Assembly (NCBI GenBank): GCA_038861545.1
Contig: JAWCCZ010000002.1
Location: 192,001-256,000, forward strand
Length of the DNA: 64,000 nucleotides
From: Thermofilaceae archaeon
GTDB lineage: Archaea; Thermoproteota; Thermoprotei; Thermofilales; Thermofilaceae
Reading direction: 5' to 3'
This document shows, one piece after another, positions 19,636-37,939 of the stretch. The number at the start of each line of letters is the position of its first letter. Position 1 is the first letter of the stretch. The notes below the pieces were generated by a model. The model searched no databases. It was given only the letters and a program-made list of their open reading frames with translations, and was not told the origin of the DNA. The position numbers and the translations under genes are program-made.

Positions 19636-19860
19636 TTCGTGTCGGAGCGAGAGTTCAAAGTAGTAAAAAAACTTCACGCTAATAAGTGCTCGATTAAGAT
19701 GCTAAATCTAAACACAAAGTTTGCTGAAAACTCATTAATACCCATTAGCGTGTGTATCGAAGTAAATTGTTTTTCTGATCAGCCTTAGAGCGAGTTCCAT
19801 AAAAAGTTTCACTTATAAGATTAGTAAAAATATCTCCATGGGTTATACAGAAGGATACCG

Positions 19861-21435
19861 CTAGCTTTGCAACATTATGCGAGGTATAGGTTCCCAGTCA
19901 TCGAAAGGTGGTCTAACCCGCTTGCACTCCTCCGGGTTCAGTGAAAGCAAATGTGCTTTAGGAAGAGCGTCCAGCAAGTCGGTTGCTAGAATGTGGTATC
20001 CTCTCTCCATAGCTACTAAATCTCCGGCAAGTCCGTTAACGAACGCGGCAGCACACGCGGCCCTGAAGGGATCCTTTGTCCACGCGAGAAACGTAGCGGT
20101 AACGCCTGTGAGCACATCCCCTGTGCCTCCAACCGTCATTCCAGGATTACCGGTTTTATTCAATTTCACCCGCTCGCCGTCGCTTACAATGTCAATGTGT
20201 CCCTTCAAGAGTACAGTGCAACCCGTCATAGAGGACAAACGCTTAGCCGCTTCTACCCTTTCCTCAACATTTTCACCGACGCTCCAGCCCGTTATCGCTT
20301 TCAGCTCACCGGCATGGGGGGTTAGTACCACCTTGCCCCCTTTAACTGAATAAATGTCAGTTGCCAATGCTTTAAGCGCGTCTGCGTCGATCACCATTAA
20401 TTTGCTGGAAGAGAACTCGGTCATTAAGCGTAGAGAAGCTTCTAAGGTCTCTTCGGCGAGACCCAAACCCGGGCCTATGGCTACTACATCAAATTTCTCT
20501 GCTACTTTTAAAAGTTCATTCAGAAGCTTCGGCGTTAAACGTTTCCCCTCATAGGGGACTACTATCAAGTTCGGTGAGAAGGCCCTTACTGGGCCTGCTG
20601 CCTGTTCGGGGACCGCGACCGCGACTAAGTCGGCCCCCATTCTTAAGCTGGCCAAAGCCGTAAGAGCTGGAGCGCCCGTGTAGGTTTCCGAGCCGCCGAT
20701 AATCAATACCCTTCCGAAATCACCTTTCTTGCTCCAAGGCCTTCGAGACTTCGTGGCGGCTATCGAGTCCCCGGGGCCACAGATAAGCTCAGCCTCAAGC
20801 GGAACGCCTGCCTGCTCGACGACAAGCTCACCCACGTACCTCTTAGCCTCTTCCCTCAGCAGGCCTGGCTTGGCAGTGTGGAAGGTAACCGTGAGATCCG
20901 CTTCAACAGCGACGCCCAATACCTCCCCAGTGTCCGCGTCCAAGCCCGAGGGGACGTCAACCGCAACCTTGAGCATGGAGCCCGAGTTGTTCACCGCCTC
21001 AATGGCCCTCCTGTAGGGGCCCCGAACCTCGCTTTTAAGCCCTGTACCAAATATCGCGTCGATGATAACGTCGGCCGACTCCAGCAGCGCAGGTGCGCGC
21101 TCGGCACAGGGGTCCACGACTAACTCCACCGTCGATGCCATCGAGCGCAGTGCCTCAAAGTTGGCCCTCGCCTCCCTAGTCCTGATAGCCTCGGCTCGCG
21201 CGAGAAGGGCTACTGTTACACGGGCGAAGGGGGCTAGGTGACGGGCAGCAACCATGCCGTCACCGCCGTTGTTCCCGGGGCCGCAGAGGATTAAAATCTT
21301 CTCCCCCTTCAGCCTCGACTTCACGTGCCTGGCTACGGCAGCGCCTGCGTTCTCCATCAGCTGGAGGCGGCTGACGCCTAAGTACTCGGAGTTATCATCA
21401 AAGATCGATAAATCTAGGCTGGTTAAGACACGCAC
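19861..21435 (-). CDS. nnr: Bifunctional NAD(P)HX epimerase/dehydratase (YjeF)
   Basis: LMENAG, GPGNNGGDG, DVPSG, GPGLG, TPHAGE and GGTGDVLTG motifs. Confidence 0.95.
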   Translation of the reverse strand: MRVLTSLDLSIFDDNSEYLGVSRLQLMENAGAAVARHVKSRLKGEKILILCGPGNNGGDGMVAARHLAPFARVTVALLARAEAIRTREARANFEALRSMASTVELVVDPCAERAPALLESADVIIDAIFGTGLKSEVRGPYRRAIEAVNNSGSMLKVAVDVPSGLDADTGEVLGVAVEADLTVTFHTAKPGLLREEAKRYVGELVVEQAGVPLEAELICGPGDSIAATKSRRPWSKKGDFGRVLIIGGSETYTGAPALTALASLRMGADLVAVAVPEQAAGPVRAFSPNLIVVPYEGKRLTPKLLNELLKVAEKFDVVAIGPGLGLAEETLEASLRLMTEFSSSKLMVIDADALKALATDIYSVKGGKVVLTPHAGELKAITGWSVGENVEERVEAAKRLSSMTGCTVLLKGHIDIVSDGERVKLNKTGNPGMTVGGTGDVLTGVTATFLAWTKDPFRAACAAAFVNGLAGDLVAMERGYHILATDLLDALPKAHLLSLNPEECKRVRPPFDDWEPIPRIMLQS

Positions 21436-21515
21436 AGTAGGACTACATTGCCAGCTAATTAAATTTACTTTAAAAGGAATTAAGAAAGAAAAGGGAAAGG
21501 GACAGGTTAGCCTGC

Positions 21516-21746
21516 TTACCTATAGCCCAGCATCATCTGCCTGCGTTCAAGGAAATCGCGGTGCTCTTTTAACAGGTTGAAAAGCGCAGTCCGAATCGCC
21601 TCACTCCTATTGTTGAATACACCCATATCCACGAGTTGATCGAGCGCGTCCAGAAGAGCCCTCGGTATATGGAAGCTTACGATATAAGTTTTAGAGCCTA
21701 TCACTAAAGGCGGTTTTCTGAGTTCCTCTTTGTTGCTCATCATCAT
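21516..21746 (-). CDS. Ribbon-helix-helix transcriptional regulator (CopG/CdrS-like)
   Basis: IVSFHIP beta-strand followed by LDQLV-x-G-x-F-NNRSEAIR. Confidence 0.85.
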   Translation of the reverse strand: MMMSNKEELRKPPLVIGSKTYIVSFHIPRALLDALDQLVDMGVFNNRSEAIRTALFNLLKEHRDFLERRQMMLGYR

Positions 21747-21891
21747 AATATGTGGTGGGCAGGTATTTTAAGCTGATACTTGCATGATTTATACCCTTGT
21801 ATGATCGAATTAAAATAATAGTACGCGGGTAATACTGTACTTTAGCATGGAGGTCAACAATAAATACGCATGAATCGCCGGTGCTGACAGT

Positions 21892-22608
21892 ATGAGCACT
21901 ATCAACGCTCTAAAAACGAAGATAAGAGAAGAAGTTTGGAACACTCTCGACGTTAACAGAGTAGCTTCGCCTAGACCCAGTAAAGGTAAAATACCTACCT
22001 TCGCTGGTGCTCGAACCGCAGCCCTAAAGTTAGTTAAAAGAGATCTATTCAAAGGAGCTGAAGTGGTTTTCTCCACTCCAGACTCTTCGTTACAGCCAAT
22101 TCGAGAAGAAACGCTAAAAACCGGTAAAACGCTCGTAATGATAACCCCCAACCTTAGTGGATTCGTTATTGTAGATGGGGGCAGTATCCCAAACTATAGG
22201 ATCACGATTGCCGCTACACCGAGAGGGGCTTTAACATTCGGCCAAAGAGTTAAGGTACCTGAAAACGTTAAAGTGGATCTAATACTCGTGGGCAGCGTGG
22301 CTGTGGATAGGCTCGGCGGTCGCCTCGGAAGGGGGGACGGTCAGCAGGATATAGAATACGCTGTTCTGCGGGAGCTAAAGTTGATCAGCGACCAAACTCC
22401 AGTGGTTACAGCTATTCATGACCTCCAAATAGTTTCCAGGGTGCCAATGCTTTACCATGACTTACCAGTCGACTATATAATTACACCTACACTATTCTTA
22501 AAAATTCAAGACGGTTATAAGAAACCCTCAGGCATTATCTGGGATGTCGTGAACGCAGAGACAATAGAAAAACTCCCACTTCTTAAAATATTATATGGTT
22601 CCGTTTAA
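21892..22608 (+). CDS. 5-formyltetrahydrofolate cyclo-ligase family (MTHFSD-like)
   Basis: IPTFAGA, PDS, GSVAVD-x-GGRLGRGDG and HDLPVDYIITP motifs. Confidence 0.85.
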   Translation: MSTINALKTKIREEVWNTLDVNRVASPRPSKGKIPTFAGARTAALKLVKRDLFKGAEVVFSTPDSSLQPIREETLKTGKTLVMITPNLSGFVIVDGGSIPNYRITIAATPRGALTFGQRVKVPENVKVDLILVGSVAVDRLGGRLGRGDGQQDIEYAVLRELKLISDQTPVVTAIHDLQIVSRVPMLYHDLPVDYIITPTLFLKIQDGYKKPSGIIWDVVNAETIEKLPLLKILYGSV

Positions 22609-22720: not shown

Positions 22721-24646
22721 TTAGTATGGAGCCAGCCACGTAGACTTTACCATTATGGCAAAAGATATTAACAGCGAAGTTGCTACACCATATCCAACGA
22801 CTGCACCAGCGTACACAGACCATTTAAGCCTCTCTACTGTTTCACGCTTGAAGCGAATTAGAATCCTATAAATTACGTGACCGATAGCTATCGATATCGC
22901 GTACGGAGGTATAGTTGAAGCTCCCACAGTAAATATCACGAGCGAGAATGGGATGCGTAAAACCTTCGTGACAAAGTGTAGAAGAACTCCTAGTATGAAT
23001 GCTGCTTCGAGAATAGGGTAGCTTTGACCCGGGTTTAGCAAAATCGATTGAAAAGCAGTGCCTCTCGTAATCCATAAGCAGCTTTGGATCACGTTTATGG
23101 GCCAGCTAGCTTGAGCCCAAGGATATGCTTGAGATGGAATCGGACCGAACAACCAAATGATACTCGTGTGGATGAAACTCATTATCAGCGAAAGAGGTAT
23201 CGCGATAGCGGCCACTGTGAGCACAACATCCCTAAGTTTTAATCCTATGTAGCGAGCCACGTAGAAGCGTGTACACCAAGTAACTCCATCACCCGGCATG
23301 GGGGCCAGCCAAGCACTGACTCCAAGCTGGCTGTGAACCGGTATATTACCTGAAGTCTGCGTAGTTATCAGAACTATCTCCCTCAGCGGTATTTGAGCCA
23401 CCGAGTAACCGGTTTCTCCGACACCCCTCGCGTTAATTAGAGTAGAGAATAACGGCCAAAACACCGTCAGAATAGTTAAAGGAAGTATTGGAAATGATGG
23501 AAGGAGCAACGCTAAACTCGCCGTCCAAGCAGCAACGCCTAGAAAATAAATCGCTAACAACTTCCAATACGAGAATCCGACTGGTGCATTACCCCTCGCG
23601 CTACCTCCAAGTGTTGAGAAAGCACTTTTAAGGAACCTGCCTATGCGTGTTAGCTCAACAACCATTATCGCGAAAGTTAAGCCCACGAACGCGCTGCTCC
23701 AAACATGTAGGTACGTGAACTGCCAGTTCAGCGTTATATTGAATCCTGGTGTCCACTCAGGAACCAAATCCCTGAAGTAGGATAACAGTAAGGAGTTACC
23801 GATTATCCATATGGTGATAGAGCCGATTAGCATAAGTACAACGTTAAATGTCGGAAGAATCAATCCTGCAAAGAATGTGAATAAGTCTGTAGCGATTCCT
23901 AGCAGAGTGCCGGGTAAGCCCAGCAAAGATTCGGCCCCTACTGATAGGTCAATAAAAGGTACCGGTATTAGCGTTACCACTCTGCCTCCCATCGTAGAGC
24001 CCAGTATATACGGTGTATAAACAAGCAGTGCGTAGACAAAAGCCGCTATAAAACCAAGAACCATAGCTCGCATTTTCTCATGCTCTCTTTCGCCCAGCGT
24101 AACAGCAATCTCTGCATCCACCCTAGCGAAGGGGAAAGGAAGTTTCTCCTCTATTACGTACATTTGATAAGCAAGGTATCCCAAGGGGAGTTCTATCACA
24201 AGCGGTAAAATAACCCCTAAGACAATTGAAACAAGAATTGGAATGAACCACTCCGGGTGAAGGAAAGTTCTGATTACCTGTTGTCTGATCAGAGGGTTAC
24301 TGGGAACCCACCATTCTGGTAGGTATTCAGTTACGCCGAAAGCCATTGCTTCAGGGCTGTTAGCAAAGTAAACCCTGTATATGAACTGGAAAAAGAACAC
24401 ATTATAGGCGGAGAGGCTTATTGCCAGATTCATCAAGTATATCTCCTGTGATGAAAGGAAACGGCCTCCAAAACTCCTGAGCACAAAGTTAAACAATAGA
24501 ATAGTTGTAAATGCAAGTCCTCCCGCGGCTCCCCCTATTAAGTTCATCCATATAGCTACTGGCATCAATGCGAGCGACGCAAAAATAGCAGCCAGTACAA
24601 CGCGGAAGGTTATACCGCTCACCAATTGGGATTCTTGTATGCTCAT
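22721..24646 (-). CDS. OPT-like polytopic membrane protein (putative transporter subunit)
   Basis: About 16 TMs; GITFRVVL, LSSQE and EEKLPFPFARV motifs; the ATG at 24646 overlaps the upstream stop (ATGA) and follows a G-rich SD. Confidence 0.7.
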   Translation of the reverse strand: MSIQESQLVSGITFRVVLAAIFASLALMPVAIWMNLIGGAAGGLAFTTILLFNFVLRSFGGRFLSSQEIYLMNLAISLSAYNVFFFQFIYRVYFANSPEAMAFGVTEYLPEWWVPSNPLIRQQVIRTFLHPEWFIPILVSIVLGVILPLVIELPLGYLAYQMYVIEEKLPFPFARVDAEIAVTLGEREHEKMRAMVLGFIAAFVYALLVYTPYILGSTMGGRVVTLIPVPFIDLSVGAESLLGLPGTLLGIATDLFTFFAGLILPTFNVVLMLIGSITIWIIGNSLLLSYFRDLVPEWTPGFNITLNWQFTYLHVWSSAFVGLTFAIMVVELTRIGRFLKSAFSTLGGSARGNAPVGFSYWKLLAIYFLGVAAWTASLALLLPSFPILPLTILTVFWPLFSTLINARGVGETGYSVAQIPLREIVLITTQTSGNIPVHSQLGVSAWLAPMPGDGVTWCTRFYVARYIGLKLRDVVLTVAAIAIPLSLIMSFIHTSIIWLFGPIPSQAYPWAQASWPINVIQSCLWITRGTAFQSILLNPGQSYPILEAAFILGVLLHFVTKVLRIPFSLVIFTVGASTIPPYAISIAIGHVIYRILIRFKRETVERLKWSVYAGAVVGYGVATSLLISFAIMVKSTWLAPY

Positions 24647-27600
24647 GCAAACCACCCCCCAGCTTTTTCGATATACAGTTTTCTATCTTCTTCTTTTAGA
24701 GAACGCCAAACTAGCAGCCGTTTCCTGACCTCATCTACAAATCTCAGGTGATTAGCAATCCAGAGCTGGCGAGGGCCTGAAAGGTGTTCACTAGTCAGGA
24801 TAAGGCGAAATCTTAGTTCGCGTGGGCCTTTCCTAGCAATTAGCTGAATGCGCTCTTCAACTCCTAACTCGTATGGCCTTAGTCGAACCCTCATATCTGA
24901 TATGTAGGCTGTCTCCCTTCCTGACACGCTCTTAGAGTATGAAAGCCCAGTCACCATAAATGGCTGGGCTTCGCTACCGTAGGCGCGAAGGGATTCTCCA
25001 ATGAAAGCTAGTAATCCTCTCGACTCAGCTTCATTCCTAACGGTGAAAGGTAGCGAAATATCCCATCTACTTCCTCTAGGTCCAGAGGATGGCCTCCACT
25101 TTCGCTCAAGGGAAGGTACAACGATTTTCGATGCCATGTAGGCGGGGTAGACAGATGCTGTAACCACAGCTAAAATCGACACCAAGATACTCGTCACCAC
25201 AGCTAGAGATGCATAGTTAAGTAATGGACCAGCTGCAACAGGTCCTAAAGCAAGACCTAAAGTATACCCTAGCGGTGCACTAAGAAAAGCATATGTGAGA
25301 ACTTCTCCGAAGAAAACACCAGCCGCATCTCTCGGGCTAGCACCCACAGTAGCGTAAACCTGCATGTCCCGCATCCTTTCATATAAAGTTCCTAGAACCA
25401 CTGACACTAACATTAGGAAACTTATCACCATAGGCACAAGTACAAACTGCCATCCTCCACCTAAGTAAGCTACTTCTCTTCGTAGATAAAGGAAACTGGA
25501 GCCTGGAGCTTCTTCCGTAGCTGCATATACATTATGGGAATAGAACCCTATATACTCACTTAATTCATTGGCAACTTGCCTTATTAGATCCTTATCGTTC
25601 GACAGTAAAGCTACAGAAAAGGGATACCCACCTAAGCGCATGGCAAGCTTATATGGTATGTAAACAACCCCCCAATATGCCCGCTCCTTGATTGGCCCCG
25701 TTTTAAGGGGGTCAAAAGGTACGATTGGCTGACCGTCTAAGTCATATATCGTTCTAAGCAGTCTGCTGTCTATAATTCCCATTACAGTAAGCTCCATGCC
25801 GTAAAGGTATACCCTGTCACCTGGCTCTAGATTCAAAGTTCTGGCTATATCATCAGTTACATAGCATTGAAACTCATCATCAAGCGTGAACCATGGACTT
25901 AATGCCTCTATAATTACATTCTGGAGTTCTAAAGCTTCAGCCTCAGCCTTAGATAAGCCGATTATTCCGCTTATTAGCACCGACTGGCCTGCAATGTTAA
26001 ACAAATATATTCTCTGAGCTGGAATCCAAACCCTTGGGACAATTTTCATTTTTTCACCGTAAACCGTTGTCAAGTAATCAAGGAAAATAGGGTTGATTGG
26101 CTGAAAAGCTTCTCTACGTGTAACTAAAACTCCCGTGTAACGTGGGCTCCAAGTTACAGCTGGCTGTCCTGGTGGAGGTAAAGTAACTGTAACCCATGTG
26201 GAAGAGAGAGCGACAAATGATACTGTCGAGAACGTCACTAACGTTACGCCAATAATTGTAAGTACAGTCCTCATATGTCTTCGCCTCAGGTTCTCCACTC
26301 CTATACTGATAGCAGTCATGGTCAACGATAACCTGTCAACGGTAACGAACATAGGTCCCATAAACCTGCTACGTATTTCTCTCACTATATTGCTGAATTC
26401 GTCAAACATTAATATCATCACAGGGATAACTAGTATTAGCGAAGTAGCGCCGAGAGCCGTTAGGAAAGAGTAACTCGCCACTTTAAATCCAGGATGAAGT
26501 AAATACTGAATTACAGTCAGCGTTAACATTATCGAAACCAACGCTATTAACCGTTTCTTTCCCTCATAGTGTAGCACCAATCTTTCGAACATAAAGACGA
26601 ATGGTAAATTAAGCAAGAAAAAGAAAACCATTGCAACTCCCGTATCAATCACCATTGACTTGCTTTTCTCATAAGCATAAAGTGCGTAGTACCAAGCTTG
26701 TACGGTGTAGGCATAGTAATCGCTATAGCGGTATTCCATCAGAGCACTTTCAGCGAGCTCGAGATTTCTAAGAGCTTTTCTATAGAACTCATCTAAATCT
26801 GCTGCTGTGGCCCCCATAAGACCTGCGCCAGTGAGAGCTTCAACCCTTCTTTTCACGACAGCTAGCAGATCTCTTGTGACTCTGAGTATCGTGGGAGCCG
26901 TATCTAAATAGTTAAAGGACACCGGCACTCCTTCCTCGTCGTTTATGAGTAACCCAATCGGATTCCCCCCACTGGTGAGAACCATCTTAATGCAGATATC
27001 CTTTGGAACAAATACCACAGCTTCGTAACCTGAGGTTGGATCAGTTAACGTGAATCTCCCTTCTGGTTTTTCAAAAATGGGTGGCTCTGATACAACATAG
27101 CTGTAACTTGTTAACCCTATACCTGACCTGTCAAGTATTTGTATACCCCCAACTGGAGGGGTCAAGAGGGAACGTGGATCAAAGAACTCATGCAGCGCTA
27201 ATGTCGCCGACCTAAAGACTGCCAAGTTGACTAACTTTCTACCGCTTCCATCAATTAATTCTGTTTCAGAGGTAAAGAAGGTGTAACCGTAGGGCCAAGA
27301 TCTCGTACCGTAAACACCATAATCTGGAGCAAAAACTATATCGCCGGTTAACTTATCAATGATAAAGGGTAAAACCTGGTACTTAGCCACCGGCACTGCC
27401 CATCCGACACTTGGCGTCAATCCTTTCAAAGTAAAAGTCCCGTCCCTATCAGCAAGCTCTACCCATTCATGCCCAAGAAGATCGTTTCTCTCAAGAATCT
27501 TTACGTGTAGGACCATTTGATACCTTTCCTCTCTCAGATAGTCATGCCAGCTGTAGTTGTACCAGCCATGCTTAATATCCCATCTTCCAACCCTACCTTT

Positions 27601-29223
27601 CACAACGGTAAACCCAAGACCTCCTGTTTCAAAGTGCGTATGCGTTGGAATAGCCCTTCCCATAATTGACGCTTTGTCATAACTAATCCAAGATATATCA
27701 TCTATTATCGCCCTAGCTAAGACAAATGAAAGTTCTACCTGAGGCCATAGGTTCTCAAAGTTTAATTTATCTAATGTGTCGAGGGGAGTTCCGTAAAGCG
27801 GCCGTGCAGTTAATGCTGTTGTAAAAGTTATCCCCCAAATACCCACTTGAGCTATAACAGCTGCATCAAAATGTCCTGGAGTTTGCAGATAACGGCGGTC
27901 AAGCTGTAAGCCAAAAGCAGTATACGTAAGGTTCCCAAGGCGTTCTTTGAGTTTTTCCCTAAGCTCGTCGCTACCCAAGTAGTATGTTCCAGAGCTCTCA
28001 TTATACCTGCCATACCTACCCCGTGTGAAAAAGAGTGAGTAAAGGTCGTTATAACCGTACCAAGAATACCATACCTGTACACCGTAAAAAGTGCTTCCCG
28101 CGACAGCGGCAATAGCTCTCGATTCGGTTGAGAAATCAAAGCCAACGGCGAACCATAGTGTGTATGAGGTCAAGGAAGAGGCGTCGTTGCTACCTATGTG
28201 GCTGTAATGCCAAATGAAGCTAGAATTCTGGATATCTCGTCGATGCCAAACAAAATTCCTAGCACCTGCCATAGCTTGAGCGTGGCCTGATAGAGCTACG
28301 AGCCAAACAGACCTCTTAGGTGGATACTCTTTTAGAATCCTCGCAAATTCTAGTAAAGCTGTGATTCCTCCGGCTTCGTTCGCACCTGGAGCCAGTGCCG
28401 GTACTATAGAGTTGGAATCATAGTATGCTACTACGACAACTGCATTTCGCCACTCTGCAGGATCGGTCCCCTTTATAACCGCGACTATGTTTTTAGCGGT
28501 AACTCTTTCCCACGTCATATTGACTACAACACGCGCCTTAACTTTCCCAACGCCGTAGTTTCTGATAAGTTCCCTCAAATAACCGGCATCACCACTGCTT
28601 ATGTAAATTCTTGGGAATTTCACGGGGATATCCAAGCTTTTATGCTCAGCTTCACCTCTTAAGGTAAATACCGGTTCAATGAATACTACAGCTTTAGCAC
28701 CAAGTCTCATAGCGTTAAGCCAATTATCTCTAGAGTTGAACTCCATTAACGCAATGCTACCGTTAATAGGCAATCCATTCAACTCCTCAAGCGACCCCTC
28801 ACCAACGTACACTAGTGGACCTTCAAAAACCCCGCTGCATGTTTGAACGTTATTGGGTAAAAGGGCATAAGCTTTAATCTCCCTGTAAGTGGGGTCAAGA
28901 ATAACGATCTTTGAGCCCCAATCCATTGGTATAGTTACGTTGTATTCTTCTACAAAAGTTTCTAAGCCCAGCGTGCTGTTAAAGTAGTCGAATATGTAGT
29001 TTGCTACCTCAATGCTTCCAGGATAACCGGTGTACCTACTCCGAGAAGCTATATACCTTAAGTGTTCGATAATTTTACTACGATTAATCGTCAGCAGGGT
29101 AGTCTGTATAATGTTATCAGTTTCAGAGAACTCAGCTAGAACTCCTCTAAATAAACCTGCAGGATACGGTAAAGCCGATAAAATTAATACGAGCACCAAA
29201 GCAAACTTCAACCACTTATACAT
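24643..29223 (-). CDS. 1526-aa fusion: signal peptide, PA domain, degenerate M28 peptidase domain, TMs, MacB-type extracytoplasmic domain and FtsX permease domain
   Basis: RYTGYPG; GPLVYVGEG; NIVAVIKG, AYYDS, PGANEAGG and ALLEFAR; ENLRRRHMRTVLTIIG; YERMRD-x-VGASP; YPAYMAS. Confidence 0.8.
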   Translation of the reverse strand: MYKWLKFALVLVLILSALPYPAGLFRGVLAEFSETDNIIQTTLLTINRSKIIEHLRYIASRSRYTGYPGSIEVANYIFDYFNSTLGLETFVEEYNVTIPMDWGSKIVILDPTYREIKAYALLPNNVQTCSGVFEGPLVYVGEGSLEELNGLPINGSIALMEFNSRDNWLNAMRLGAKAVVFIEPVFTLRGEAEHKSLDIPVKFPRIYISSGDAGYLRELIRNYGVGKVKARVVVNMTWERVTAKNIVAVIKGTDPAEWRNAVVVVAYYDSNSIVPALAPGANEAGGITALLEFARILKEYPPKRSVWLVALSGHAQAMAGARNFVWHRRDIQNSSFIWHYSHIGSNDASSLTSYTLWFAVGFDFSTESRAIAAVAGSTFYGVQVWYSWYGYNDLYSLFFTRGRYGRYNESSGTYYLGSDELREKLKERLGNLTYTAFGLQLDRRYLQTPGHFDAAVIAQVGIWGITFTTALTARPLYGTPLDTLDKLNFENLWPQVELSFVLARAIIDDISWISYDKASIMGRAIPTHTHFETGGLGFTVVKGRVGRWDIKHGWYNYSWHDYLREERYQMVLHVKILERNDLLGHEWVELADRDGTFTLKGLTPSVGWAVPVAKYQVLPFIIDKLTGDIVFAPDYGVYGTRSWPYGYTFFTSETELIDGSGRKLVNLAVFRSATLALHEFFDPRSLLTPPVGGIQILDRSGIGLTSYSYVVSEPPIFEKPEGRFTLTDPTSGYEAVVFVPKDICIKMVLTSGGNPIGLLINDEEGVPVSFNYLDTAPTILRVTRDLLAVVKRRVEALTGAGLMGATAADLDEFYRKALRNLELAESALMEYRYSDYYAYTVQAWYYALYAYEKSKSMVIDTGVAMVFFFLLNLPFVFMFERLVLHYEGKKRLIALVSIMLTLTVIQYLLHPGFKVASYSFLTALGATSLILVIPVMILMFDEFSNIVREIRSRFMGPMFVTVDRLSLTMTAISIGVENLRRRHMRTVLTIIGVTLVTFSTVSFVALSSTWVTVTLPPPGQPAVTWSPRYTGVLVTRREAFQPINPIFLDYLTTVYGEKMKIVPRVWIPAQRIYLFNIAGQSVLISGIIGLSKAEAEALELQNVIIEALSPWFTLDDEFQCYVTDDIARTLNLEPGDRVYLYGMELTVMGIIDSRLLRTIYDLDGQPIVPFDPLKTGPIKERAYWGVVYIPYKLAMRLGGYPFSVALLSNDKDLIRQVANELSEYIGFYSHNVYAATEEAPGSSFLYLRREVAYLGGGWQFVLVPMVISFLMLVSVVLGTLYERMRDMQVYATVGASPRDAAGVFFGEVLTYAFLSAPLGYTLGLALGPVAAGPLLNYASLAVVTSILVSILAVVTASVYPAYMASKIVVPSLERKWRPSSGPRGSRWDISLPFTVRNEAESRGLLAFIGESLRAYGSEAQPFMVTGLSYSKSVSGRETAYISDMRVRLRPYELGVEERIQLIARKGPRELRFRLILTSEHLSGPRQLWIANHLRFVDEVRKRLLVWRSLKEEDRKLYIEKAGGWFA

Positions 29224-29272: not shown

Positions 29273-31318
29273 CTACCTGCCTTGTATAGCGAACACTATA
29301 CCCCTAGCTGGCAGGTAACCGATGAAAGCACCTATGAATAGGCCGAGGAACGCTGGAAAAGCTTTCTCTTCATAGAACTTAGATCCAAAGATCTTAAGTA
29401 TTAAGAACTTAATTACGTATGCTACTAAACCATAGAGGAACGCGTAGAAACTCACGGAGAATAGCATTAATCCAACAGGGTTAAGTGGGAACCAGGCGAA
29501 ACGCATCCTAGCAAAACCCATAGCGAGCACTAATAGTACACCGAGTAAAACATTCAAGTAGAAGTACGGAGCTTTATCTCCTCCATAGGGTCCGAAACCT
29601 CCCTTCATTAAACCGTCAACCGTAGCGGGCCATACCAGCTGCTGACCAGCCCACCAATCCGCTACATAGTTTTTCACACCAACGTTCGAGATAACCTGAG
29701 CTAACAGCGTGAAAGTCAAGGGTACAGCAACTAACGTTGCTATTAATTGTGCTATAAAGACTTCTTTAAGGTCGGTTTTCGTGGACTCGGCTATGCTCAT
29801 AGCTTCAATACCAGCAATACCATAGTTCCACTGTGCATACCATTTCTGACCTGGCCCCTCTACGAAATTCCTTGTCACGTAAAGGTGTAATGCTTGTTCA
29901 CCAGTTAACGGAGTATAGAAGCCAGGAGCTGCACCTACAGCTACAGCTAGATGATAGAAACCGTTTGACAAGATATCGCTGCCTCCTGTCCACGGTCCCC
30001 AATTCCCTGCCATAAAACCGGGCCAGACGTCTCCTCTTATTCTAATCTGGGTGAACAACGAGAATGCTAGAACAAAAACTGCATAGAATGCTAACAGGGG
30101 ATGTGCACCAGATACAGACATGAAAGCAAATAACAGCGCAGTTGAACCAATTATCATTACCCATATAGTTCTGTAGGACAGCGGTACATTACCCTTGCCG
30201 CCCCTAGACAAAGCCTTCAACGTTCTAGTTAAGTGGTGTCTCGCCATCCATATGGTTAAAATACCAATGCCTATCCACACACTGTGATCAAGTATAACCT
30301 CAGGCATTATTGGTGGAGTATCCATACCCATAGTGTAGAAGACCGGCCATTCTGATGATCCAAACATCGGCTCTCTAAAGCCTCCAGCAACCGCTATTAT
30401 CGGCCATATTATCCAGAATACAATGAAGGCGACTATACCTGTTAACAGTATGTCAAGTGGGAACAAAAGATAGTAGCTTAAACCTAAGATATCTATACTC
30501 CATGCTATCAGAGCATTAGTGAAAGGAGTTGGTAATTGTCCAACATAAGACACATCGTAACCTATGTATGAGGGTATAGATTGTTGAATAGCAGGTACTA
30601 ATTCGACACCAGGTGGCCCTTGCACATTTATTAAAAGCCCAATTGCGAAGGCGACCCAGAAGAAAATAGATTTCCATAGATTTGGTATCCTACCTCCCTC
30701 CTTTACAGTTGTACTTTGAATTGCAAGCCATTCAGCAACTCTTGCTAGTGGATATTCAAGCCTTTCAACTTCGAGGAACTGCTCCTTGTAAAGTAACGCG
30801 ATACCATATGATAACGCGAAAAGCATTAATTGTATGAAAGTGAAAAGTATAACTGTAGGGAAAAGCGCGCTTATTGGAGCTCCTCCGTCCCAGAGCTGGT
30901 CTTTAAGACCTTTTGGTACCCAGAAACCGGGAACAGCATCCCAGCTTAACACGAAATCAGACTGAAGGATGCCGAAAAGATACGAAAATGTAGCTAATCC
31001 TACACAGAAAGGCACTGGCACCATACTCCAGATAATAGCATAAACTATGGTGTTTTCCTGTGCAGAGAGCCGCTTTCTAAGTATTAATGAACTTAGTAGA
31101 CTCGTGATAACTAAGGTCAAGAGAAAGACGAAGTACTGAGTGCCAAAGAATACCATTACTCTAAGAGTCCGCCTAACCGATAATCGCGGCCACCAGTATA
31201 AAGGTAGAATGAAAAGAATTCCAGCCACCAAACCTATTAGAAGAGCTCTCAATGTTAATCCTTTAGGCCTCACCTCAACTGTGGCTCCAGAGGTGATTTG
31301 AACACCTTCTGTGCTCAT
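29273..31318 (-). CDS. OPT-like (DUF6785/DUF6784-type) polytopic membrane protein
   Basis: About 16 TMs; GLTLRALLIG, LSAQE, ERLEYPLARV, and C-terminal RMRFAWFPLNPVG...KFLILKIFG...Y...PAFLGLFIG; family name from recall. Confidence 0.7.
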   Translation of the reverse strand: MSTEGVQITSGATVEVRPKGLTLRALLIGLVAGILFILPLYWWPRLSVRRTLRVMVFFGTQYFVFLLTLVITSLLSSLILRKRLSAQENTIVYAIIWSMVPVPFCVGLATFSYLFGILQSDFVLSWDAVPGFWVPKGLKDQLWDGGAPISALFPTVILFTFIQLMLFALSYGIALLYKEQFLEVERLEYPLARVAEWLAIQSTTVKEGGRIPNLWKSIFFWVAFAIGLLINVQGPPGVELVPAIQQSIPSYIGYDVSYVGQLPTPFTNALIAWSIDILGLSYYLLFPLDILLTGIVAFIVFWIIWPIIAVAGGFREPMFGSSEWPVFYTMGMDTPPIMPEVILDHSVWIGIGILTIWMARHHLTRTLKALSRGGKGNVPLSYRTIWVMIIGSTALLFAFMSVSGAHPLLAFYAVFVLAFSLFTQIRIRGDVWPGFMAGNWGPWTGGSDILSNGFYHLAVAVGAAPGFYTPLTGEQALHLYVTRNFVEGPGQKWYAQWNYGIAGIEAMSIAESTKTDLKEVFIAQLIATLVAVPLTFTLLAQVISNVGVKNYVADWWAGQQLVWPATVDGLMKGGFGPYGGDKAPYFYLNVLLGVLLVLAMGFARMRFAWFPLNPVGLMLFSVSFYAFLYGLVAYVIKFLILKIFGSKFYEEKAFPAFLGLFIGAFIGYLPARGIVFAIQGR

Positions 31319-32118: not shown

Positions 32119-33267
32119 TTACTCGTAACCCTCCTTACATTTAGTTTGGTAAAGCAGGGTTATAATTGTGGGTATAATTAGAATTACGGCATTGGCCAAG
32201 ATCGTAGTTTTTAGTCCAAATCGGTCTGCTATAACGCCGCCTATAAGCGCGCCTAGTATCCAGCCGACATTCATAGCGGTGTTTCTGAGACCGATTAAAG
32301 CTCCTCTAGTTGAGGCAGCGGCTATTCGTGAAACATAAGCTAGAGTTGAAGCTTCGAAAAACGCGTAAGCAATGGCTCTCGTTATTTGCGCTACAATCAA
32401 GTAATTCCAAGAGGAAGTAGCCACGTAGATCATGTATGTTAACATCAAAGTCAGGCTGGAAAATACTACAGTTTCCTTCATCAATCCCCTATCGACGAGC
32501 CTACCGCTTATCACCATAAATGGTACTTCCCCAAAAGCCGCTACAGCCCATAGTACGTAGGCATCCCCCAGGTTATAGCCCAAGCTCGCGACGTAATTAG
32601 GCCATACACTTGTCACAGCCATAAACGAGAAAGACCATAGTACCAATATAACTAAGAAATGCGAAAACCTTTTGACATTTAAGCTTTCGCGTCGAGTGGG
32701 TTGGCTTTCCTTATCTTTGAGAAAAACCGCCAAAGGTAGTGAGAAAACGCTTAACACAGCTGAAAAGGCGAAAACCAGAGTACGCTCTCCCAAAATAGCG
32801 GAGGTAGCAATCGCTGCTACGGCGAAGCCTATCGACCCCATCATTCTAGCGATACCAGTGGCTAAGCCTACGCTTAAGCCCAGCGTTGCTGCTTGACCGC
32901 TGACCGCCGCCGGTATGCTGGTGTAAACAGCGGCTGAAGCTATGCCCTCTAAAGCCCTTAACCCGATAGCGTGAAGGGAGTTCCCCATATAGGGTAGCGC
33001 CAAGAAAAATACTGCCTGCAGAGCGAAACCGATGAACGCTACAGGAGCCCTTCCGATCACATCCGACGCCACACCCCACGCGTACTGGGATACCATTCCC
33101 GCTAGAGTCGAAGCCGCCGACGCTGCGCCAACAGTAGCGTAGGAGCCCGTGATAGCCTCGATGTAAACCGGAAGAAAAGGTATGTATAGGCCTCGAACAG
33201 CGAAGTAGAGCGTGAAAGCCATTAATGGCGGGGTTAACTTTGCGAGCGACGCTCTGCGGCTGGACAT
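32119..33267 (-). CDS. MFS transporter
   Basis: 12 TMs; GVASDVIGR and GRLVDRG loop motifs; start set at ATG 33267. Confidence 0.9.
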   Translation of the reverse strand: MSSRRASLAKLTPPLMAFTLYFAVRGLYIPFLPVYIEAITGSYATVGAASAASTLAGMVSQYAWGVASDVIGRAPVAFIGFALQAVFFLALPYMGNSLHAIGLRALEGIASAAVYTSIPAAVSGQAATLGLSVGLATGIARMMGSIGFAVAAIATSAILGERTLVFAFSAVLSVFSLPLAVFLKDKESQPTRRESLNVKRFSHFLVILVLWSFSFMAVTSVWPNYVASLGYNLGDAYVLWAVAAFGEVPFMVISGRLVDRGLMKETVVFSSLTLMLTYMIYVATSSWNYLIVAQITRAIAYAFFEASTLAYVSRIAAASTRGALIGLRNTAMNVGWILGALIGGVIADRFGLKTTILANAVILIIPTIITLLYQTKCKEGYE

Positions 33268-33305
33268 GCGACTGCCTTGAAAACTCAGGTACAAAAGAGT
33301 ACTTC

Positions 33306-33632
33306 TCATTCCGCCTTGTGCGGCTTAGCGGTTAACCACATCTCCTCTGCTTCTCTTAAAACCTCTTCTTCGCTCCTACTGCTTTCCAGTACTTGATACT
33401 CTGCATAGCTAGGCTTCCCCTCCTTTAGCCTCGACCCGATCAGTTCTACAGCTCGCCTGGTCGGGTGTATAGCCACTGACGCATAGGCCCTCACAATCGC
33501 TGCTGCCGTAGCCTCTTGGAGGATGATTGTTTGATCGTCCAGCTCCAAGATTAACCGCGCATGAACATGTCCTTCGGGTATGAAAACTACGATACGCTTT
33601 ACGTCCTCATTCCTGTAAATTTTTAGGCGCAT
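33306..33632 (-). CDS. Conserved hypothetical protein
   Basis: IPEGHVHAR and QEATAAAIVRAY-x-HP conserved-looking motifs; start set at MRLKIY. Confidence 0.7.
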   Translation of the reverse strand: MRLKIYRNEDVKRIVVFIPEGHVHARLILELDDQTIILQEATAAAIVRAYASVAIHPTRRAVELIGSRLKEGKPSYAEYQVLESSRSEEEVLREAEEMWLTAKPHKAE

Positions 33633-33663
33633 ACAGAGATGTAGCACATTGTTTTAAAACTCT

Positions 33664-34668
33664 CTAGGCTGCTTCCAGTATACCTACGTATGATGGAGAC
33701 TTCATCTGCCTGATCACCCGCCAACCAGCTATGCTGATCCATTCCCTTAGCTGGCTGTATGTAGGGTATATCTCCTGGCCCAGTAGGTACCCTATTAAGC
33801 TAAGCGTCCTAAACATCTTATTGTCTTGGAGAGGTTGGCTGAGTAAAGCCGCCGGAGCGGTATTGCGCATACTTCTGAGCGTGACCACAGGATCCATAAC
33901 CTGCTGAAGAACTCCGAACGCGACGACTAAGTCAGCGCTTGGGACTACTTTATGCAGCTCCTCGGGCCGACCTAGGCGCGTCTCCAGCCTATCTCTAACA
34001 CTGTAAGCTTCAGCCAGTTTCTCAGCTTCCCGCAGGTTTGACAGGAAGGGATCCACGAAGATTACCTTGCAACCCGTAAACCTTAGGAGGATTGTAGCGA
34101 TGAAACCGCGTGCGGAACTGATGTCCACGATTACGGTATTCGATGAAAGGCGGTTAAGACCCGCCCAGGCAACCATTAATTGGTAAATCCACTCCTGCGA
34201 CCTGTTGGCTATGGCTTTCTGGTAAATTTCCATTGATTCCTCCCGCGCCGCTAACTGGGCTAGAGGCCTAACACCCCTTAGCAGGGCTTCCGGGAGCGTT
34301 TCAAGCGTTCGGTCTACAACTTGCTTATACTCTGCAAAAAACATTGTTTCTATCGCGGGCGGTGAGCCGGAGAAGCGAATCCAGCGAAGCCTGCCTTGAA
34401 CCCACTCAGCATAACCCTCGGCCTCCATTATATCACCTACCAGTTTCGCTAAATCTGGGTTAGGGAAATCGAAAAATGGTAGTGAGGCCAGTTCCTTATC
34501 CACGCCGGATTCCTCTAAAACTCGCCTAATCTTCCATGGAACGTATTTTCGCGCTTCCCGCATCGCGGAAATACTTTCTCTAACTTCTCTGTTAAGCAGG
34601 GCACGCATCATATATGATCTAGGAAGGCGGGCATCTCTAAGTACTGAAATAACTGGGGACTGGGACAC
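33664..34668 (-). CDS. Class I SAM-dependent methyltransferase-like protein
   Basis: IVDISSARG (degenerate motif I), VIFVD and DLVVAFGVLQQVMDP. Confidence 0.65.
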   Translation of the reverse strand: MSQSPVISVLRDARLPRSYMMRALLNREVRESISAMREARKYVPWKIRRVLEESGVDKELASLPFFDFPNPDLAKLVGDIMEAEGYAEWVQGRLRWIRFSGSPPAIETMFFAEYKQVVDRTLETLPEALLRGVRPLAQLAAREESMEIYQKAIANRSQEWIYQLMVAWAGLNRLSSNTVIVDISSARGFIATILLRFTGCKVIFVDPFLSNLREAEKLAEAYSVRDRLETRLGRPEELHKVVPSADLVVAFGVLQQVMDPVVTLRSMRNTAPAALLSQPLQDNKMFRTLSLIGYLLGQEIYPTYSQLREWISIAGWRVIRQMKSPSYVGILEAA

Positions 34669-34719
34669 AGGAAACAGAAATAAAAACTGGTATAAATAAA
34701 TTAAAGGGTAAACTTGCAG

Positions 34720-35655
34720 TTAAGCCTGCTTCATTTTTACGCGAGTTTTTACAAACTTGGTATAAGCTAGGTAGCCGAAAACACCGGCTAGCATCAATGG
34801 CGAAAACCCGATGAGGAGTATAATTGTCCCGTAGATTACGGAGTAGAGCAGGCCTAGAGCGGAGGCGAGAGCCGGCATAGGGTCGAAACTTGGGAAGGTT
34901 ACAATAGGTTTAATCTCTTTCGGCGGAGCCTCAATATGAACCCTTATGCTTGAGAACTGGACACTTCTCTCCAAGTTTTTAAGCTGAGCTTCGTACCACT
35001 CGATGTTGGATCTCACCCTTGTAAGGTAATCTTCAACTTTCAGCAACTCCTCCACAGTTTTCGCCTGGGAGAGAAGCTGGAGCAACCTCTCCTCCTGAGC
35101 TCTCAGAGCTTTTAACCTTGCCTCCAGGTCGATGTACTGCTCAGTCACATCCCTTGCCGTTGTCGAAACCTCTATCACGCTCGCCAGCTTTTTCAGCTCC
35201 TCCAGTGTCTTGTTGAACTTCTCCTGCGGCACCTTGAGAAGCACTACGGCGTAATCCTCACCAACATACATTTCACCAACATAGCCTCCAAACGCATCAG
35301 CAAGCCTCGACGCTCTCTCCGCAACGCGGGACACATCCTCAATGCCCCCTACGCGCAACCTCACGTAACCCTCCATTATCACTTTCCTGCCTTCCGGCAG
35401 GCTGTACGACATGCCGCTACCACCTCCGGGCCCTGTAGTTGTAACGCTTGTCGCGGGCCCCGCTTTGCTATAGGTTGACTCCAAACCTGGACTTGAAGCA
35501 AAGCTAGGGATCCCTCCTCTTCCAATGAGTCCAAAGGGGGATCCTGTTAAAGTCTCGTAGATCGGCTGGAAGCTAATCGAAAGGAAAAAGCCGATTATGA
35601 TGCCGGAAAAAAGTAGCGCTGTGCACGCGGCAACTAATTTCACTTGTTTATTCAT
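34720..35655 (-). CDS. DUF4349-type membrane protein with coiled coil
   Basis: N- and C-terminal TMs; GGYV, DVTEQYIDLEARL and coiled-coil motifs. Confidence 0.8.
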   Translation of the reverse strand: MNKQVKLVAACTALLFSGIIIGFFLSISFQPIYETLTGSPFGLIGRGGIPSFASSPGLESTYSKAGPATSVTTTGPGGGSGMSYSLPEGRKVIMEGYVRLRVGGIEDVSRVAERASRLADAFGGYVGEMYVGEDYAVVLLKVPQEKFNKTLEELKKLASVIEVSTTARDVTEQYIDLEARLKALRAQEERLLQLLSQAKTVEELLKVEDYLTRVRSNIEWYEAQLKNLERSVQFSSIRVHIEAPPKEIKPIVTFPSFDPMPALASALGLLYSVIYGTIILLIGFSPLMLAGVFGYLAYTKFVKTRVKMKQA

Positions 35656-35732
35656 CCCTATTCACCAATGCTATACTTTTAGAGGCAATTAGACTTATCC
35701 TTGCGGACACTCCGTCCGTAAAAGCGGACATC

Positions 35733-37001
35733 CTACGGGTAAAAGCTGCTACCGTACGCGGTCTCGAGCATAGCGACTACGTTCCGAGGCGGTGTACGAG
35801 GCTGAATGTTATGTACTTGGCAGAAAACGTACCCCCCACCCCTCTTAAATACCTCGACGCTAGCCTTTACATGTGCAACCACATCGTCAACTTGAGCGAA
35901 AGGAAGCACATGCTGTGTGTCGGCACCGCCTCCCCAAAACGCTAGCTGCTCGCCGAACTCCTTCTTCAACCGTTCTGGTTCCATGTTCCTAGCAGAAATT
36001 TGAACCGGGTTCAATGCATCCACGCCAGCGTCGATAAGGTCCGGTATTAGCTCATACACGGACCCGCATGAGTGAAGGAAAACGAACATTTTTGAATGCT
36101 TCTTCACGTACTGGTACAGCTCTTCGTGGTACGGTTTCAGCATTTCCCTGTAAACTTTCGGCGGGATCTGTGGACCCGCTTGAGTTCCTAAATCGTCGCC
36201 GAACTCGATTACATGGATGAAATCCTTTAAAGCTTCCACGTACTTTTTCACGTTGTGTAGGTTCACCTCAAGCATGTAGTCGAGAATCTTCGAAGCTAGG
36301 CTTTTTCTAAAGGTTAAGTCTACCAGCCACGTACTCCAACCACGCAACCCTTGACCCCACTCGTGGAAACCCGAGTACGTGGAGTACATAAGGGCGTAGT
36401 CGGTGGTCCTGTAAAGGTGCTCAGCCTTCCTCCTCACCCATTCAACTTGGGCATCGCTAACCTTATACATGTCCCAGTTGTAGCTGTCAACCTCCTCAGG
36501 GCTCTTTACCCCAGCTAAAGGATGATCGCTTTGCCAGCTATTGACACCGCCGAAGTAGTAGCTCCCTCTTGGCATCCTTGACACAATTTTGCTACTTGCG
36601 TTTCTGATAACCCAGCCGCCTTCTCCATCCGGCTCCGGGTTAAACCACTCAGGGATTTCGCATGGAGTACCATCAGGTAAAACCCACGGTTTCCATCTCC
36701 GCCCGTCAGGACCGCATGGGTCTAGGCTCCTCGTAACATCCAGCACGTCGACGTGGAAGAGCTCGAGTATACTTTTTTCTGGTTCAGCGAGCTGTTGTCC
36801 TGTATCGTACACACGGATTACACCGCCTTTAAAGTTGAGGTATCTCCTTAACCCCGCGTAGGCTACTGCGTGGATACCGGTTGAAGCCATTGCACCTAAG
36901 TCGATTGGTACTCTATCGGGCTCCTCATGACGTAGTGCAGCAATAACGCGTTCCCTGCGGCTCATCCACTCTTTAGTGGACACGCTTCCTCCACTAGACA
37001 T
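35733..37001 (-). CDS. Uroporphyrinogen decarboxylase / MtaA-CmuA methyltransferase family protein
   Basis: EPDRVP, GDDLGTQ, HSCG, LNPVQ and GGYVFCQVHNIQ motifs. Confidence 0.85.
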   Translation of the reverse strand: MSSGGSVSTKEWMSRRERVIAALRHEEPDRVPIDLGAMASTGIHAVAYAGLRRYLNFKGGVIRVYDTGQQLAEPEKSILELFHVDVLDVTRSLDPCGPDGRRWKPWVLPDGTPCEIPEWFNPEPDGEGGWVIRNASSKIVSRMPRGSYYFGGVNSWQSDHPLAGVKSPEEVDSYNWDMYKVSDAQVEWVRRKAEHLYRTTDYALMYSTYSGFHEWGQGLRGWSTWLVDLTFRKSLASKILDYMLEVNLHNVKKYVEALKDFIHVIEFGDDLGTQAGPQIPPKVYREMLKPYHEELYQYVKKHSKMFVFLHSCGSVYELIPDLIDAGVDALNPVQISARNMEPERLKKEFGEQLAFWGGGADTQHVLPFAQVDDVVAHVKASVEVFKRGGGYVFCQVHNIQPRTPPRNVVAMLETAYGSSFYP

Positions 37002-37093
37002 ACTTAAAATGGTTAACCTTACCCCCGGTTAGGGCTAACTCTTTTAAGTCAAGATGCTCGAAGAAAATTGAATGAAAAGATTATAGAAGACCG

Positions 37094-37921
37094 TTAACCA
37101 AGCAAGCGGTCCGCCACAATATCTAACATTAATGTCCAGATATCATAGAAAGCCCTGGGCACTTCGCCTTCCATCATTCTTTCATCAACAATCTTCCAGT
37201 AGCCGGTACACACATGACACACACTTAGCTTGAAGGGTTTACCTTTACCGGCATCAACTGTTGTAACAAGTTGCGCGTCGTCGTTCCCGCAGAATGGGCA
37301 TTTATCCTGTTGATAGCCCCACTCGGTGCCACAGAACTGGCACTTCAAGTTGAAAGCTCCGTCCCTATCCACGAAACCGAGCCTGGCAAAACTCCCGCAT
37401 ACGGGGCATCGCCCAGCGTGCCAAGCTGACAGGTCAACTTCGCTGACAAGGCGTTCAGAGAGAGCAGTGTAAGCTGGCTGTATGGACCACGCGACTAGCG
37501 TCTTCATAGCCGCCGAGTCTACTCCAGCTTCACCTGCCAAGCTGTCAGCTTCGCTTACCTCGCCAGCCAACATACGCTTAGCAACTTCAGCTAGCCTGAG
37601 CCGCCCATTGTTCCACGCGTCAACTATCATCTGAACATTCGCAGCTTCACTTGGAATCCTGTTAACAACGAGCTCCGCAATAGCCTTTACCGAAGAACCT
37701 ACTTCTTCTTCGCTTAACCACAACCCCACTGCCATGGAAGCCGGAGTACCTGACTCCACCGCTTCTTTAGCGGCTTGCATATCTAACCTATTGAGTGTAT
37801 TAGAATACTCATCTTTCAACCTGTCCTGCATTTCTAAGAGATCAAGGAAAGCTTCAAAGGATTGATCATCGACAGGAACATCGCCTCGTATAGAACTAGT
37901 TTTCTCCCTTAAGTTACTCAT
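37094..37921 (-). CDS. fdhE: Formate dehydrogenase accessory protein FdhE-like
   Basis: W-x-GRCPVCGS, CQFCGTEW, CPFCGN and CHVC-x-YWK Cys pattern. Confidence 0.85.
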   Translation of the reverse strand: MSNLREKTSSIRGDVPVDDQSFEAFLDLLEMQDRLKDEYSNTLNRLDMQAAKEAVESGTPASMAVGLWLSEEEVGSSVKAIAELVVNRIPSEAANVQMIVDAWNNGRLRLAEVAKRMLAGEVSEADSLAGEAGVDSAAMKTLVAWSIQPAYTALSERLVSEVDLSAWHAGRCPVCGSFARLGFVDRDGAFNLKCQFCGTEWGYQQDKCPFCGNDDAQLVTTVDAGKGKPFKLSVCHVCTGYWKIVDERMMEGEVPRAFYDIWTLMLDIVADRLLG

Positions 37922-37939
37922 TTAAACCATCTCTCGAAG

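Follow-up and report, generated by a model that had tools for sequence, protein, structure and literature searches.

A remodeled M28 aminopeptidase fold heads a MacB/FtsX-type membrane protein encoded beside OPT-like neighbors in a Thermofilaceae archaeon

Results

Domain order and fold of a 1526-amino-acid membrane protein

We analyzed a stretch of 64,000 nucleotides (nt) from a Thermofilaceae archaeon (the window; contig JAWCCZ010000002.1 of assembly GCA_038861545.1), focusing on a minus-strand gene at positions 24643-29223 that encodes a 1526-amino-acid membrane protein (P0001, here called the giant, whose numbering is used for all residues). A preliminary description of the interval 28140-28830, which corresponds to residues 132-362 of the giant, had interpreted it as an M28 peptidase domain that has lost its zinc ligands and general base and serves as a receptor-type pseudoenzyme. 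Here, we describe the giant as an M28-type head with a remodeled pocket on a MacB/FtsX-type permease body, encoded next to OPT-superfamily-like membrane proteins. The source genome (G000) comprises 1.63 Mb; C1, C3, etc. designate its contigs, while P and L numbers designate relatives and loci, respectively.

From the N to the C terminus, the giant consists of an anchor, a head of PA and M28 domains, a beta-rich domain, a helical stalk, a block of 3 transmembrane (TM) segments, a MacB/FtsX unit, and a cytoplasmic tail:

24643-29223, minus strand: giant gene, open reading frame for a 1526-amino-acid membrane protein with Pfam M28 and FtsX matches
29137-29214, minus strand: N-terminal hydrophobic segment (residues 4-29, from hydropathy), signal anchor or signal peptide
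28924-29127, minus strand: first part of the M28 fold (residues 33-100), aligned to 2ek8 from residue 20 on
28519-28923, minus strand: PA (protease-associated) insert (residues 101-235), aligned to the PA region of 2ek8
28240-28518, minus strand: M28 core with the remodeled pocket (residues 236-328), from the Pfam match at 245-352, alignments, and the family census
28168-28239, minus strand: clade-specific loop (residues 329-352) containing WHYSHIG, with low pLDDT and a gap in most relatives
27679-28167, minus strand: second half of the M28 fold (residues 353-515), from alignments and strand assignment
26899-27618, minus strand: beta-rich ectodomain (residues 536-775), from secondary structure at high pLDDT
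26647-26892, minus strand: three long stalk helices leading into the membrane (residues 778-859), from the AlphaFold2 model
26374-26658, minus strand: three-helix TM block (residues 856-950), from hydropathy and helices in a second model
25123-26346, minus strand: MacB/FtsX-type unit (residues 960-1367)
24646-25098, minus strand: conserved cytoplasmic alpha+beta tail of approximately 150 amino acids (residues 1376-1526)

The giant matches Pfam Peptidase_M28 (PF04389) at residues 245-352 with 42.3 bits (cut-off 21.3, E 8.6e-11), the match spanning only positions 1-104 of the 193 in the profile, and Pfam FtsX at residues 1260-1367 with 37.4 bits (cut-off 25.5). An NCBIfam scan assigned no family to the giant or to either of its two neighbors. 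An AlphaFold2 model of residues 1-860, calculated with 75 relatives as input, reached a mean pLDDT of 89.2 and a pTM of 0.90. Its head found the PA-containing aminopeptidase 2ek8 as the top Foldseek match (E 3.2e-25), followed by BSAP, PaAP, GCPII/III, and the transferrin receptor (TfR). Furthermore, residues 33 to 514 align to 1amp, and residues 101 to 235, approximately, align with the PA region of 2ek8, BSAP, GCPII, and TfR. Therefore, the assignment of the head to the PA + M28 aminopeptidase fold is secure. While PF02225 (PA) was recorded for several homologs, it gave no match for the giant itself at E ≤ 0.01. Within the PA domain, Gly175, Lys195, and Arg205 are invariant in the family, which shares an LGAKA motif and 15 alignment columns conserved at ≥90%.

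At the N terminus, the model shows a helix (residues 2-17) followed by a linker of low pLDDT (residues 19-29). The fold-search matches do not cover the beta-rich domain (residues 536-775). The clade-specific loop has a pLDDT below 50 at residues 329-342, and residues 329-352 are gapped in 97 of 120 relatives. Its His-rich motif WHYSHIG reads WHYDHIG in a Brockarchaeota-type sister clade, and most family members lack the loop.

The MacB-type unit comprises a cytoplasmic lead-in helix (ENLRRRHMRTVLT), TM1, an extracytoplasmic domain (residues 1010-1250), and TM2-4. All elements of the FtsX-domain layout are thus found in the giant, and the body of the protein is a MacB/FtsX-type permease. A tandem FtsX repeat, with the preceding three-TM block as a cryptic FtsX domain, was considered and rejected, as hhalign of this block against FtsX gave a probability of 1.3%; the resemblance is an analogy in connectivity only. 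Headless relatives of 940-1130 amino acids, which share the stalk/TM/FtsX part and lack the PA + M28 head, were found at L024:8162-11557, where the copy directly follows a full module, as well as in the source genome (C1:389820-393092, C4:120563-123589, and C1:412737-415562).

The metal site and general base of the head are remodeled

All motifs quoted in the preliminary description were recovered on the minus strand, at the positions indicated there:

28795-28821, minus strand: GPLVYVGEG, residues 135-143
28468-28491, minus strand: NIVAVIKG, residues 245-252
28414-28428, minus strand: AYYDS, residues 266-270
28366-28386, minus strand: GANEAGG, residues 280-286
28339-28359, minus strand: ALLEFAR, residues 289-295
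28276-28290, minus strand: SGHAQ, residues 312-316

The active site was read from a pairwise phmmer alignment to 2ek8, an M28 control from the same genome, and an E-INS-i (MAFFT) alignment of this control with 15 family members. The control, a standalone M28 protein of 414 amino acids (C1:367921-369165), is intact and has all canonical ligands as well as the Glu-Glu pair (motifs AHLDS, GATDNAAG, SGEELG, NLDVHG, and IHTVQD). The corresponding residues of the giant are:

28423-28425, minus strand: Tyr267 at the His ligand, replaced
28417-28419, minus strand: Asp269 at the second-shell Asp, kept
28375-28377, minus strand: Glu283 at the bridging Asp, conservative change
28282-28284, minus strand: His314 at the general-base Glu, replaced
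28279-28281, minus strand: Ala315 at the Glu ligand, replaced
28135-28137, minus strand: Asp363 (VGFDFS) at the strand Asp ligand, kept, at the end of strand 355-363
27790-27792, minus strand: Gly478 at the C-terminal His ligand, replaced (YHTPxD reads YGTPLD)

Three of the five metal-ligand positions are replaced, one is changed conservatively (Glu283), and one is kept (Asp363); two carboxylates remain. The residue-by-residue alignment confirmed the previously noted exchanges of the His ligand for Tyr267, of the base Glu for His314, and of the Glu ligand for Ala315, and added that of the C-terminal His for Gly478. The claim of lost zinc ligands therefore holds for three positions, but neither for Glu283 nor for Asp363, which is kept just outside the interval described. 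The general base, in turn, is lost as claimed, with His314 in its place here and never a Glu among 260 relatives.

The equivalence of Asp363 rests on the MAFFT alignment with the control and on its strand position, because the comparison of the family profile with PDB entries left this region unaligned: the NLDVHG strand of the control aligns to VGFDFS, and in both the Asp ends the beta-strand. Ser341, which the pairwise phmmer alignment placed at the strand Asp, was rejected as an artifact, since residues 329-352 constitute a clade-specific insertion of low confidence.

For the Aeromonas enzyme, we take Zn1 to be bound by Asp117, Glu152, and His256, and Zn2 by His97, Asp117, and Asp179. On this scheme, the Zn1 half-site of the giant would be abolished, while the Zn2 half-site would retain two of its three ligands. 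Because the Glu/His half-site has become Ala315/Gly478 and the base Glu has become His314, the sequence predicts that a canonical co-catalytic dizinc center cannot form in the head. The giant thus passes the Pfam threshold for M28 and has the features of the fold, whereas the five-ligand set and the general-base Glu are absent. The source genome keeps one M28 enzyme, which is presumably active, alongside six remodeled copies.

The remodeled pocket is conserved across a large family

A word-indexed search returned more than 160 full-length relatives of approximately 1500 amino acids with M28 and FtsX, often together with MacB_PCD, from Thermofilaceae, other Thermoproteota, Brockarchaeota, Bathyarchaeia, Micrarchaeia, Nitrososphaerota, Armatimonadota, and Gemmatimonadota. 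An exhaustive phmmer search with residues 1-520 against 1.84 billion representatives yielded 563 clusters (50% identity) at E ≤ 1e-30; of the 150 best-scoring clusters, almost all have a length of 1400-1600 amino acids. Some bacterial members (P0098, P0102, and P0103, with 2357-2560 amino acids, as well as P0095) carry very large ectodomain insertions as well as LysM (PF01476) domains, which suggests peptidoglycan contact.

Among 260 family members, none has the canonical ligand set, and in none is the Glu/His half-site complete. Asp269 is present in all 260, His314 in 222 (85%), and Asp363 in 216 (83%), while position 315 is occupied by small or aromatic residues and never by Glu. The full His/acid/Asp triad is kept in 86 members (33%), among them the closest relatives, which share 56-59% identity; 27 of the 35 triad-bearing members in a first sample also have His314. 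At position 283, the acid is replaced by Ser, Asn, Met, or Gln in large clades of bacteria, so that only Asp363 and His314 are left. Homologs therefore share the substitutions as far as the canonical set and the Glu/His half-site are concerned, but not with respect to the triad that one-third of them keep.

In a FastTree phylogeny of 240 members, for which the site columns were left out, His and Tyr at position 267 changed at least 27 times, and acid and non-acid residues at position 283 changed 5 times. Such free exchange of His and Tyr would be unusual for an obligatory Zn ligand. Among the six paralogs within the genome, mean identity amounts to 42% in the M28 core and 38% in the PA domain, compared to 23-30% in most other parts. 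The conservation of Asp269, His314, and Asp363, together with the M28 core and PA domain being best conserved and Lys195 and Arg205 invariant, argues for a pocket that appears to be remodeled and under purifying selection, rather than for a decaying relic.

OPT-like partners and ABC ATPases in the genomic context

The giant gene is flanked by two genes for polytopic membrane proteins:

29273-31318, minus strand: upstream partner with DUF6785 and DUF6784, 681 amino acids, polytopic (Pfam; synteny; fused in P0107)
22721-24655, minus strand: downstream partner X644, 644 amino acids, polytopic, OPT-superfamily-like (open reading frame, atlas neighbors, Pfam match of a paralog, hhalign)

The giant gene is translationally coupled to that of X644, whose start overlaps the giant gene end by 13 nt, and is preceded by the second OPT-superfamily-like gene, DUF6785/DUF6784, which ends 49 nt upstream. 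With approximately 16 TM segments and 640-680 amino acids, both neighbors resemble the OPT/YSL superfamily (PF03169), but differ in that neither has an OPT match at E ≤ 0.01; X644 has no Pfam match at all. However, a paralog of X644 (C1:473728-475716) exceeds the Pfam OPT cut-off with 39.1 bits. The atlas neighbors of X644 are OPT-like, and its predicted structure matches a DUF6784/6785 cluster (TM-score 0.79). Furthermore, hhalign of X644 against DUF6785 profiles gave a probability of 99.95% (E 1.8e-38, 579 columns), and the two proteins are distant paralogs. A literature search found no paper on DUF6785.

Besides the copy in the window (24643-29223), diverged paralogs of the giant are encoded at C1:240885-245393, C6:37167-41789, C1:397986-402521, C7:20178-24650, and C1:469279-473721. 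These six genes, for proteins of 1480-1540 amino acids, account for approximately 1.7% of the 1.63-Mb genome. An OPT-like X644 homolog of approximately 640 amino acids adjoins all six, and four have a DUF6785 neighbor. Within the same family and order, a single genome contains as many as about 10-12 matches, and some related Thermoproteota genomes of approximately 2 Mb have up to about 10 copies; in the genus with closed genomes, only the standalone M28 protein of approximately 420 amino acids was found. In a context survey of 80 loci from named genomes, an adjacent OPT-like partner was found in 19 of 20 evaluable archaeal loci (both partners in 13) and an adjacent X644 in 22 of 24 bacterial loci. 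In P0107, the giant and DUF6785 are fused into a single chain.

An ABC ATPase adjacent to the giant was ruled out for the source genome, where the 13 kb around each of the six paralogs contain no PF00005 match, and none was found nearby in 11 archaeal loci. In 20 of 21 bacterial (Armatimonadota) loci, by comparison, an ABC ATPase and a mini-FtsX follow downstream on the same strand within 7 kb. The best source-genome homologs of this cluster ATPase (E 5e-109 and 8e-103) are unlinked to the modules, and two loci are candidates for a trans-acting motor:

G000 C3:19994-21492: pair of a mini-FtsX (238 amino acids) and an ABC ATPase (20764-21492)
G000 C5:60848-61594: orphan ABC ATPase without a membrane neighbor

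Some Armatimonadota loci (e.g., L064:19848-21719 and L073:19314-20810) encode a further protein of 500-620 amino acids after the cluster ATPase, with an M28-like segment that matches positions 236-334 of the giant profile.

The DNA of the module, across the whole stretch, is present in hot-spring DNA metagenomes from two studies. In addition, a sediment metatranscriptome (X8) contains three short, near-identical contigs (216, 176, and 349 nt) over the giant and DUF6785 genes (window positions 25524-25739, 27205-27380, and 29484-29813), which is a weak hint at transcription of the module, with DNA carry-over as a possible source. The genes on both sides seem unrelated to the module: at window positions 17011-22608, a P-type cation ATPase, a bifunctional NAD(P)HX epimerase/dehydratase, and a 5-formyltetrahydrofolate cyclo-ligase; at 32119-38707, an MFS transporter, a methyltransferase, a DUF4349 protein, a URO-D-like protein, an FdhE-like zinc-ribbon protein, and NucS.

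Discussion

The PA-domain M28 aminopeptidases of Bacillales (Aneurinibacillus AM-1, 2ek8; Bacillus subtilis BSAP/YwaD, 6hc6) are secreted in soluble form and carry a dizinc site with the complete H-D-E-E-D-H set. The head of the giant differs from them by the replacement of three ligands and of the base, by an inserted loop of 24 residues, and by its position as the N-terminal third of a membrane protein of 1526 amino acids. Non-enzymatic M28-fold ectodomains have been described for TfR (PMC10794815) and nicastrin (PMC2647162), and the family profile of the giant matches nicalin (E 1.2e-11) and TfR (E 1.8e-14). Like TfR, nicastrin, and nicalin, the giant head is a membrane-anchored ectodomain with an M28 fold that apparently lacks a competent catalytic center. 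However, TfR1/GCPII (M28B), nicastrin, and nicalin are eukaryotic single-pass proteins, while the head described here is joined covalently to a MacB-type permease and has a family-specific conserved pocket (Asp269, His314, and Asp363). There is no sign of orthology, because bacterial aminopeptidases match at least as well. The previously drawn analogy to TfR and nicastrin thus stands with regard to an M28-fold membrane ectodomain with an inactive site, but does not extend to common descent, the best matches being bacterial PA-aminopeptidases. Similarly, the designation as a pseudoenzyme fits a head in which the canonical dizinc center is predicted not to form and which has no canonical counterpart among 260 members, but it would be misleading if taken to mean a simply dead enzyme, as the pocket is conserved.

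In comparison to the type VII ABC systems, which work by mechanotransmission (MacB, LolCDE, FtsEX, HrtBA, and YbbAP), the giant has 950 additional N-terminal residues and a cytoplasmic tail of 150 amino acids, and in archaea it lacks an adjacent ATPase gene. To our knowledge, no described MacB-type permease partners with an OPT-like secondary transporter, nor do we know of a described OPT transporter that works with a receptor outside the cytoplasm or with an FtsX partner. Our literature search found no paper on a combination of MacB, FtsX, PA domain, and OPT, on an FtsX + M28 fusion in archaea, or on a prokaryotic counterpart of the non-enzymatic M28-fold ectodomains of TfR, nicastrin, and nicalin.

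We propose, with a probability of roughly 50%, that the head is a non-hydrolytic binding or gating element, which would feed the OPT-like partners and be driven conformationally by the MacB-type body. The head would no longer hydrolyze peptides by the M28 mechanism; instead, the retained acidic and His residues of the old active site, located under the PA lid, would bind a ligand. This ligand would most plausibly be the free amino terminus of a peptide, because the strand Asp and the base position presumably contact the substrate amine in M28-substrate complexes. The head would then capture substrate on the extracytoplasmic side, or act as a gate there, and pass the substrate on to the OPT-like partner or partners, while the MacB-type body would transmit conformational changes to the head. 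An ABC ATPase would probably drive these changes, encoded in the cluster in Armatimonadota and possibly by the unlinked candidates at C3:20764-21492 and C5:60848-61594 in the source archaeon. Six paralogous modules per genome would provide six specificities. The head is surrounded by a transporter-like module and therefore fits a binding role, as had been suggested previously.

Several points weigh against this proposal. The one-third of relatives, including the closest, that keep the His/acid/Asp half-site together with His314 could hold one metal, and Tyr can ligate metals as well. The suggested nature of the ligand follows from the contacts that we assume for the strand Asp and the base position. 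The bacterial ATPase link comes mostly from one phylum, its loci are not independent, and the cluster ATPase may serve the adjacent mini-FtsX instead. Moreover, the partners are called OPT-like on the basis of the Pfam match of a paralog, language-model neighbors, and predicted-structure similarity, and the evidence for their physical contact with the giant consists of synteny and one fusion.

The same conserved pocket could alternatively belong to a non-canonical hydrolase, which would use a single metal at His/Tyr267, Glu283, and Asp363, or no metal, with His314 as the base, and trim peptides before OPT-like uptake. Conservation of Asp269, His314, and Asp363 exactly at former active-site positions would be expected of such an enzyme, as would the M28 core being the best-conserved region among the paralogs and the full triad in 86 of 260 members, mostly accompanied by His314. 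Glutaminyl cyclases, moreover, have an M28 fold that works with one zinc. Nevertheless, the giant itself has Tyr267, at a position where His and Tyr swap freely, and the acid at 283 was lost in large bacterial clades. The half-site destroyed here, that of the Glu and the C-terminal His, is the one that is sufficient for the Aeromonas enzyme to retain most of its activity, and glutaminyl cyclase has kept it. As for the base, a change from Glu to His appears compatible with activity, since a Glu151His mutant of the Aeromonas enzyme is reported to be functional (PDB 2anp; PMID 16142900, cited in PMC4320195); however, the dizinc site of that mutant was otherwise intact. Altogether, we regard a hydrolase of this kind as the main alternative, although a less probable one.

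A purely structural role, in which the head would bind no small ligand and serve as a steric gate, an assembly platform, or a contact to the envelope or S-layer, similar to the role proposed for nicastrin in gamma-secretase and to nicalin as part of an ER membrane-protein complex, appears unlikely. The profile matches to nicalin and TfR, the large, rigid ectodomain that the model places on a stalk, and the wall contact suggested by LysM domains in some bacterial members are in line with it, as is the existence of FtsX relatives without a head (e.g., L024:8162-11557). Yet, if the head were a pure scaffold, the retention of exactly the residues of the former catalytic pocket (invariant Asp269, His314, and Asp363), or of the invariant Lys195 and Arg205 of the PA domain, would be unexpected, and six to approximately 10 diverged copies per small genome suit varied specificities better. 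Finally, that the giant is an ordinary, active M28 aminopeptidase is hardly conceivable. Its Pfam M28 match lies above the cut-off, and public source names such as "M28 family peptidase" imply it, but three of five ligands and the base are replaced, and the canonical set that is found in none of the 260 members is present in the standalone M28 protein of the same genome.

A further possibility, which we put forward tentatively, is that the three-gene module represents a new class of composite transporter, in which a disabled-aminopeptidase receptor head on a MacB-type mechanotransducer feeds one or two OPT-superfamily secondary transporters. This would amount to a receptor-dependent, possibly ATP-gated OPT system, present in 6 copies in a 1.6-Mb genome. 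In public sources, these proteins are labeled either "M28 family peptidase" or "FtsX-like permease"; the former label implies an activity that the canonical site is predicted to be unable to deliver. The half-retained metal site, with His or Tyr at 267 and Glu, Ser, or Asn at 283, would offer a natural series for the path from a dizinc peptidase to a binding module, and the OPT-like partnership together with the MacB-type body may point to a previously undescribed coupling of substrate capture to transport in organisms that use external peptides.

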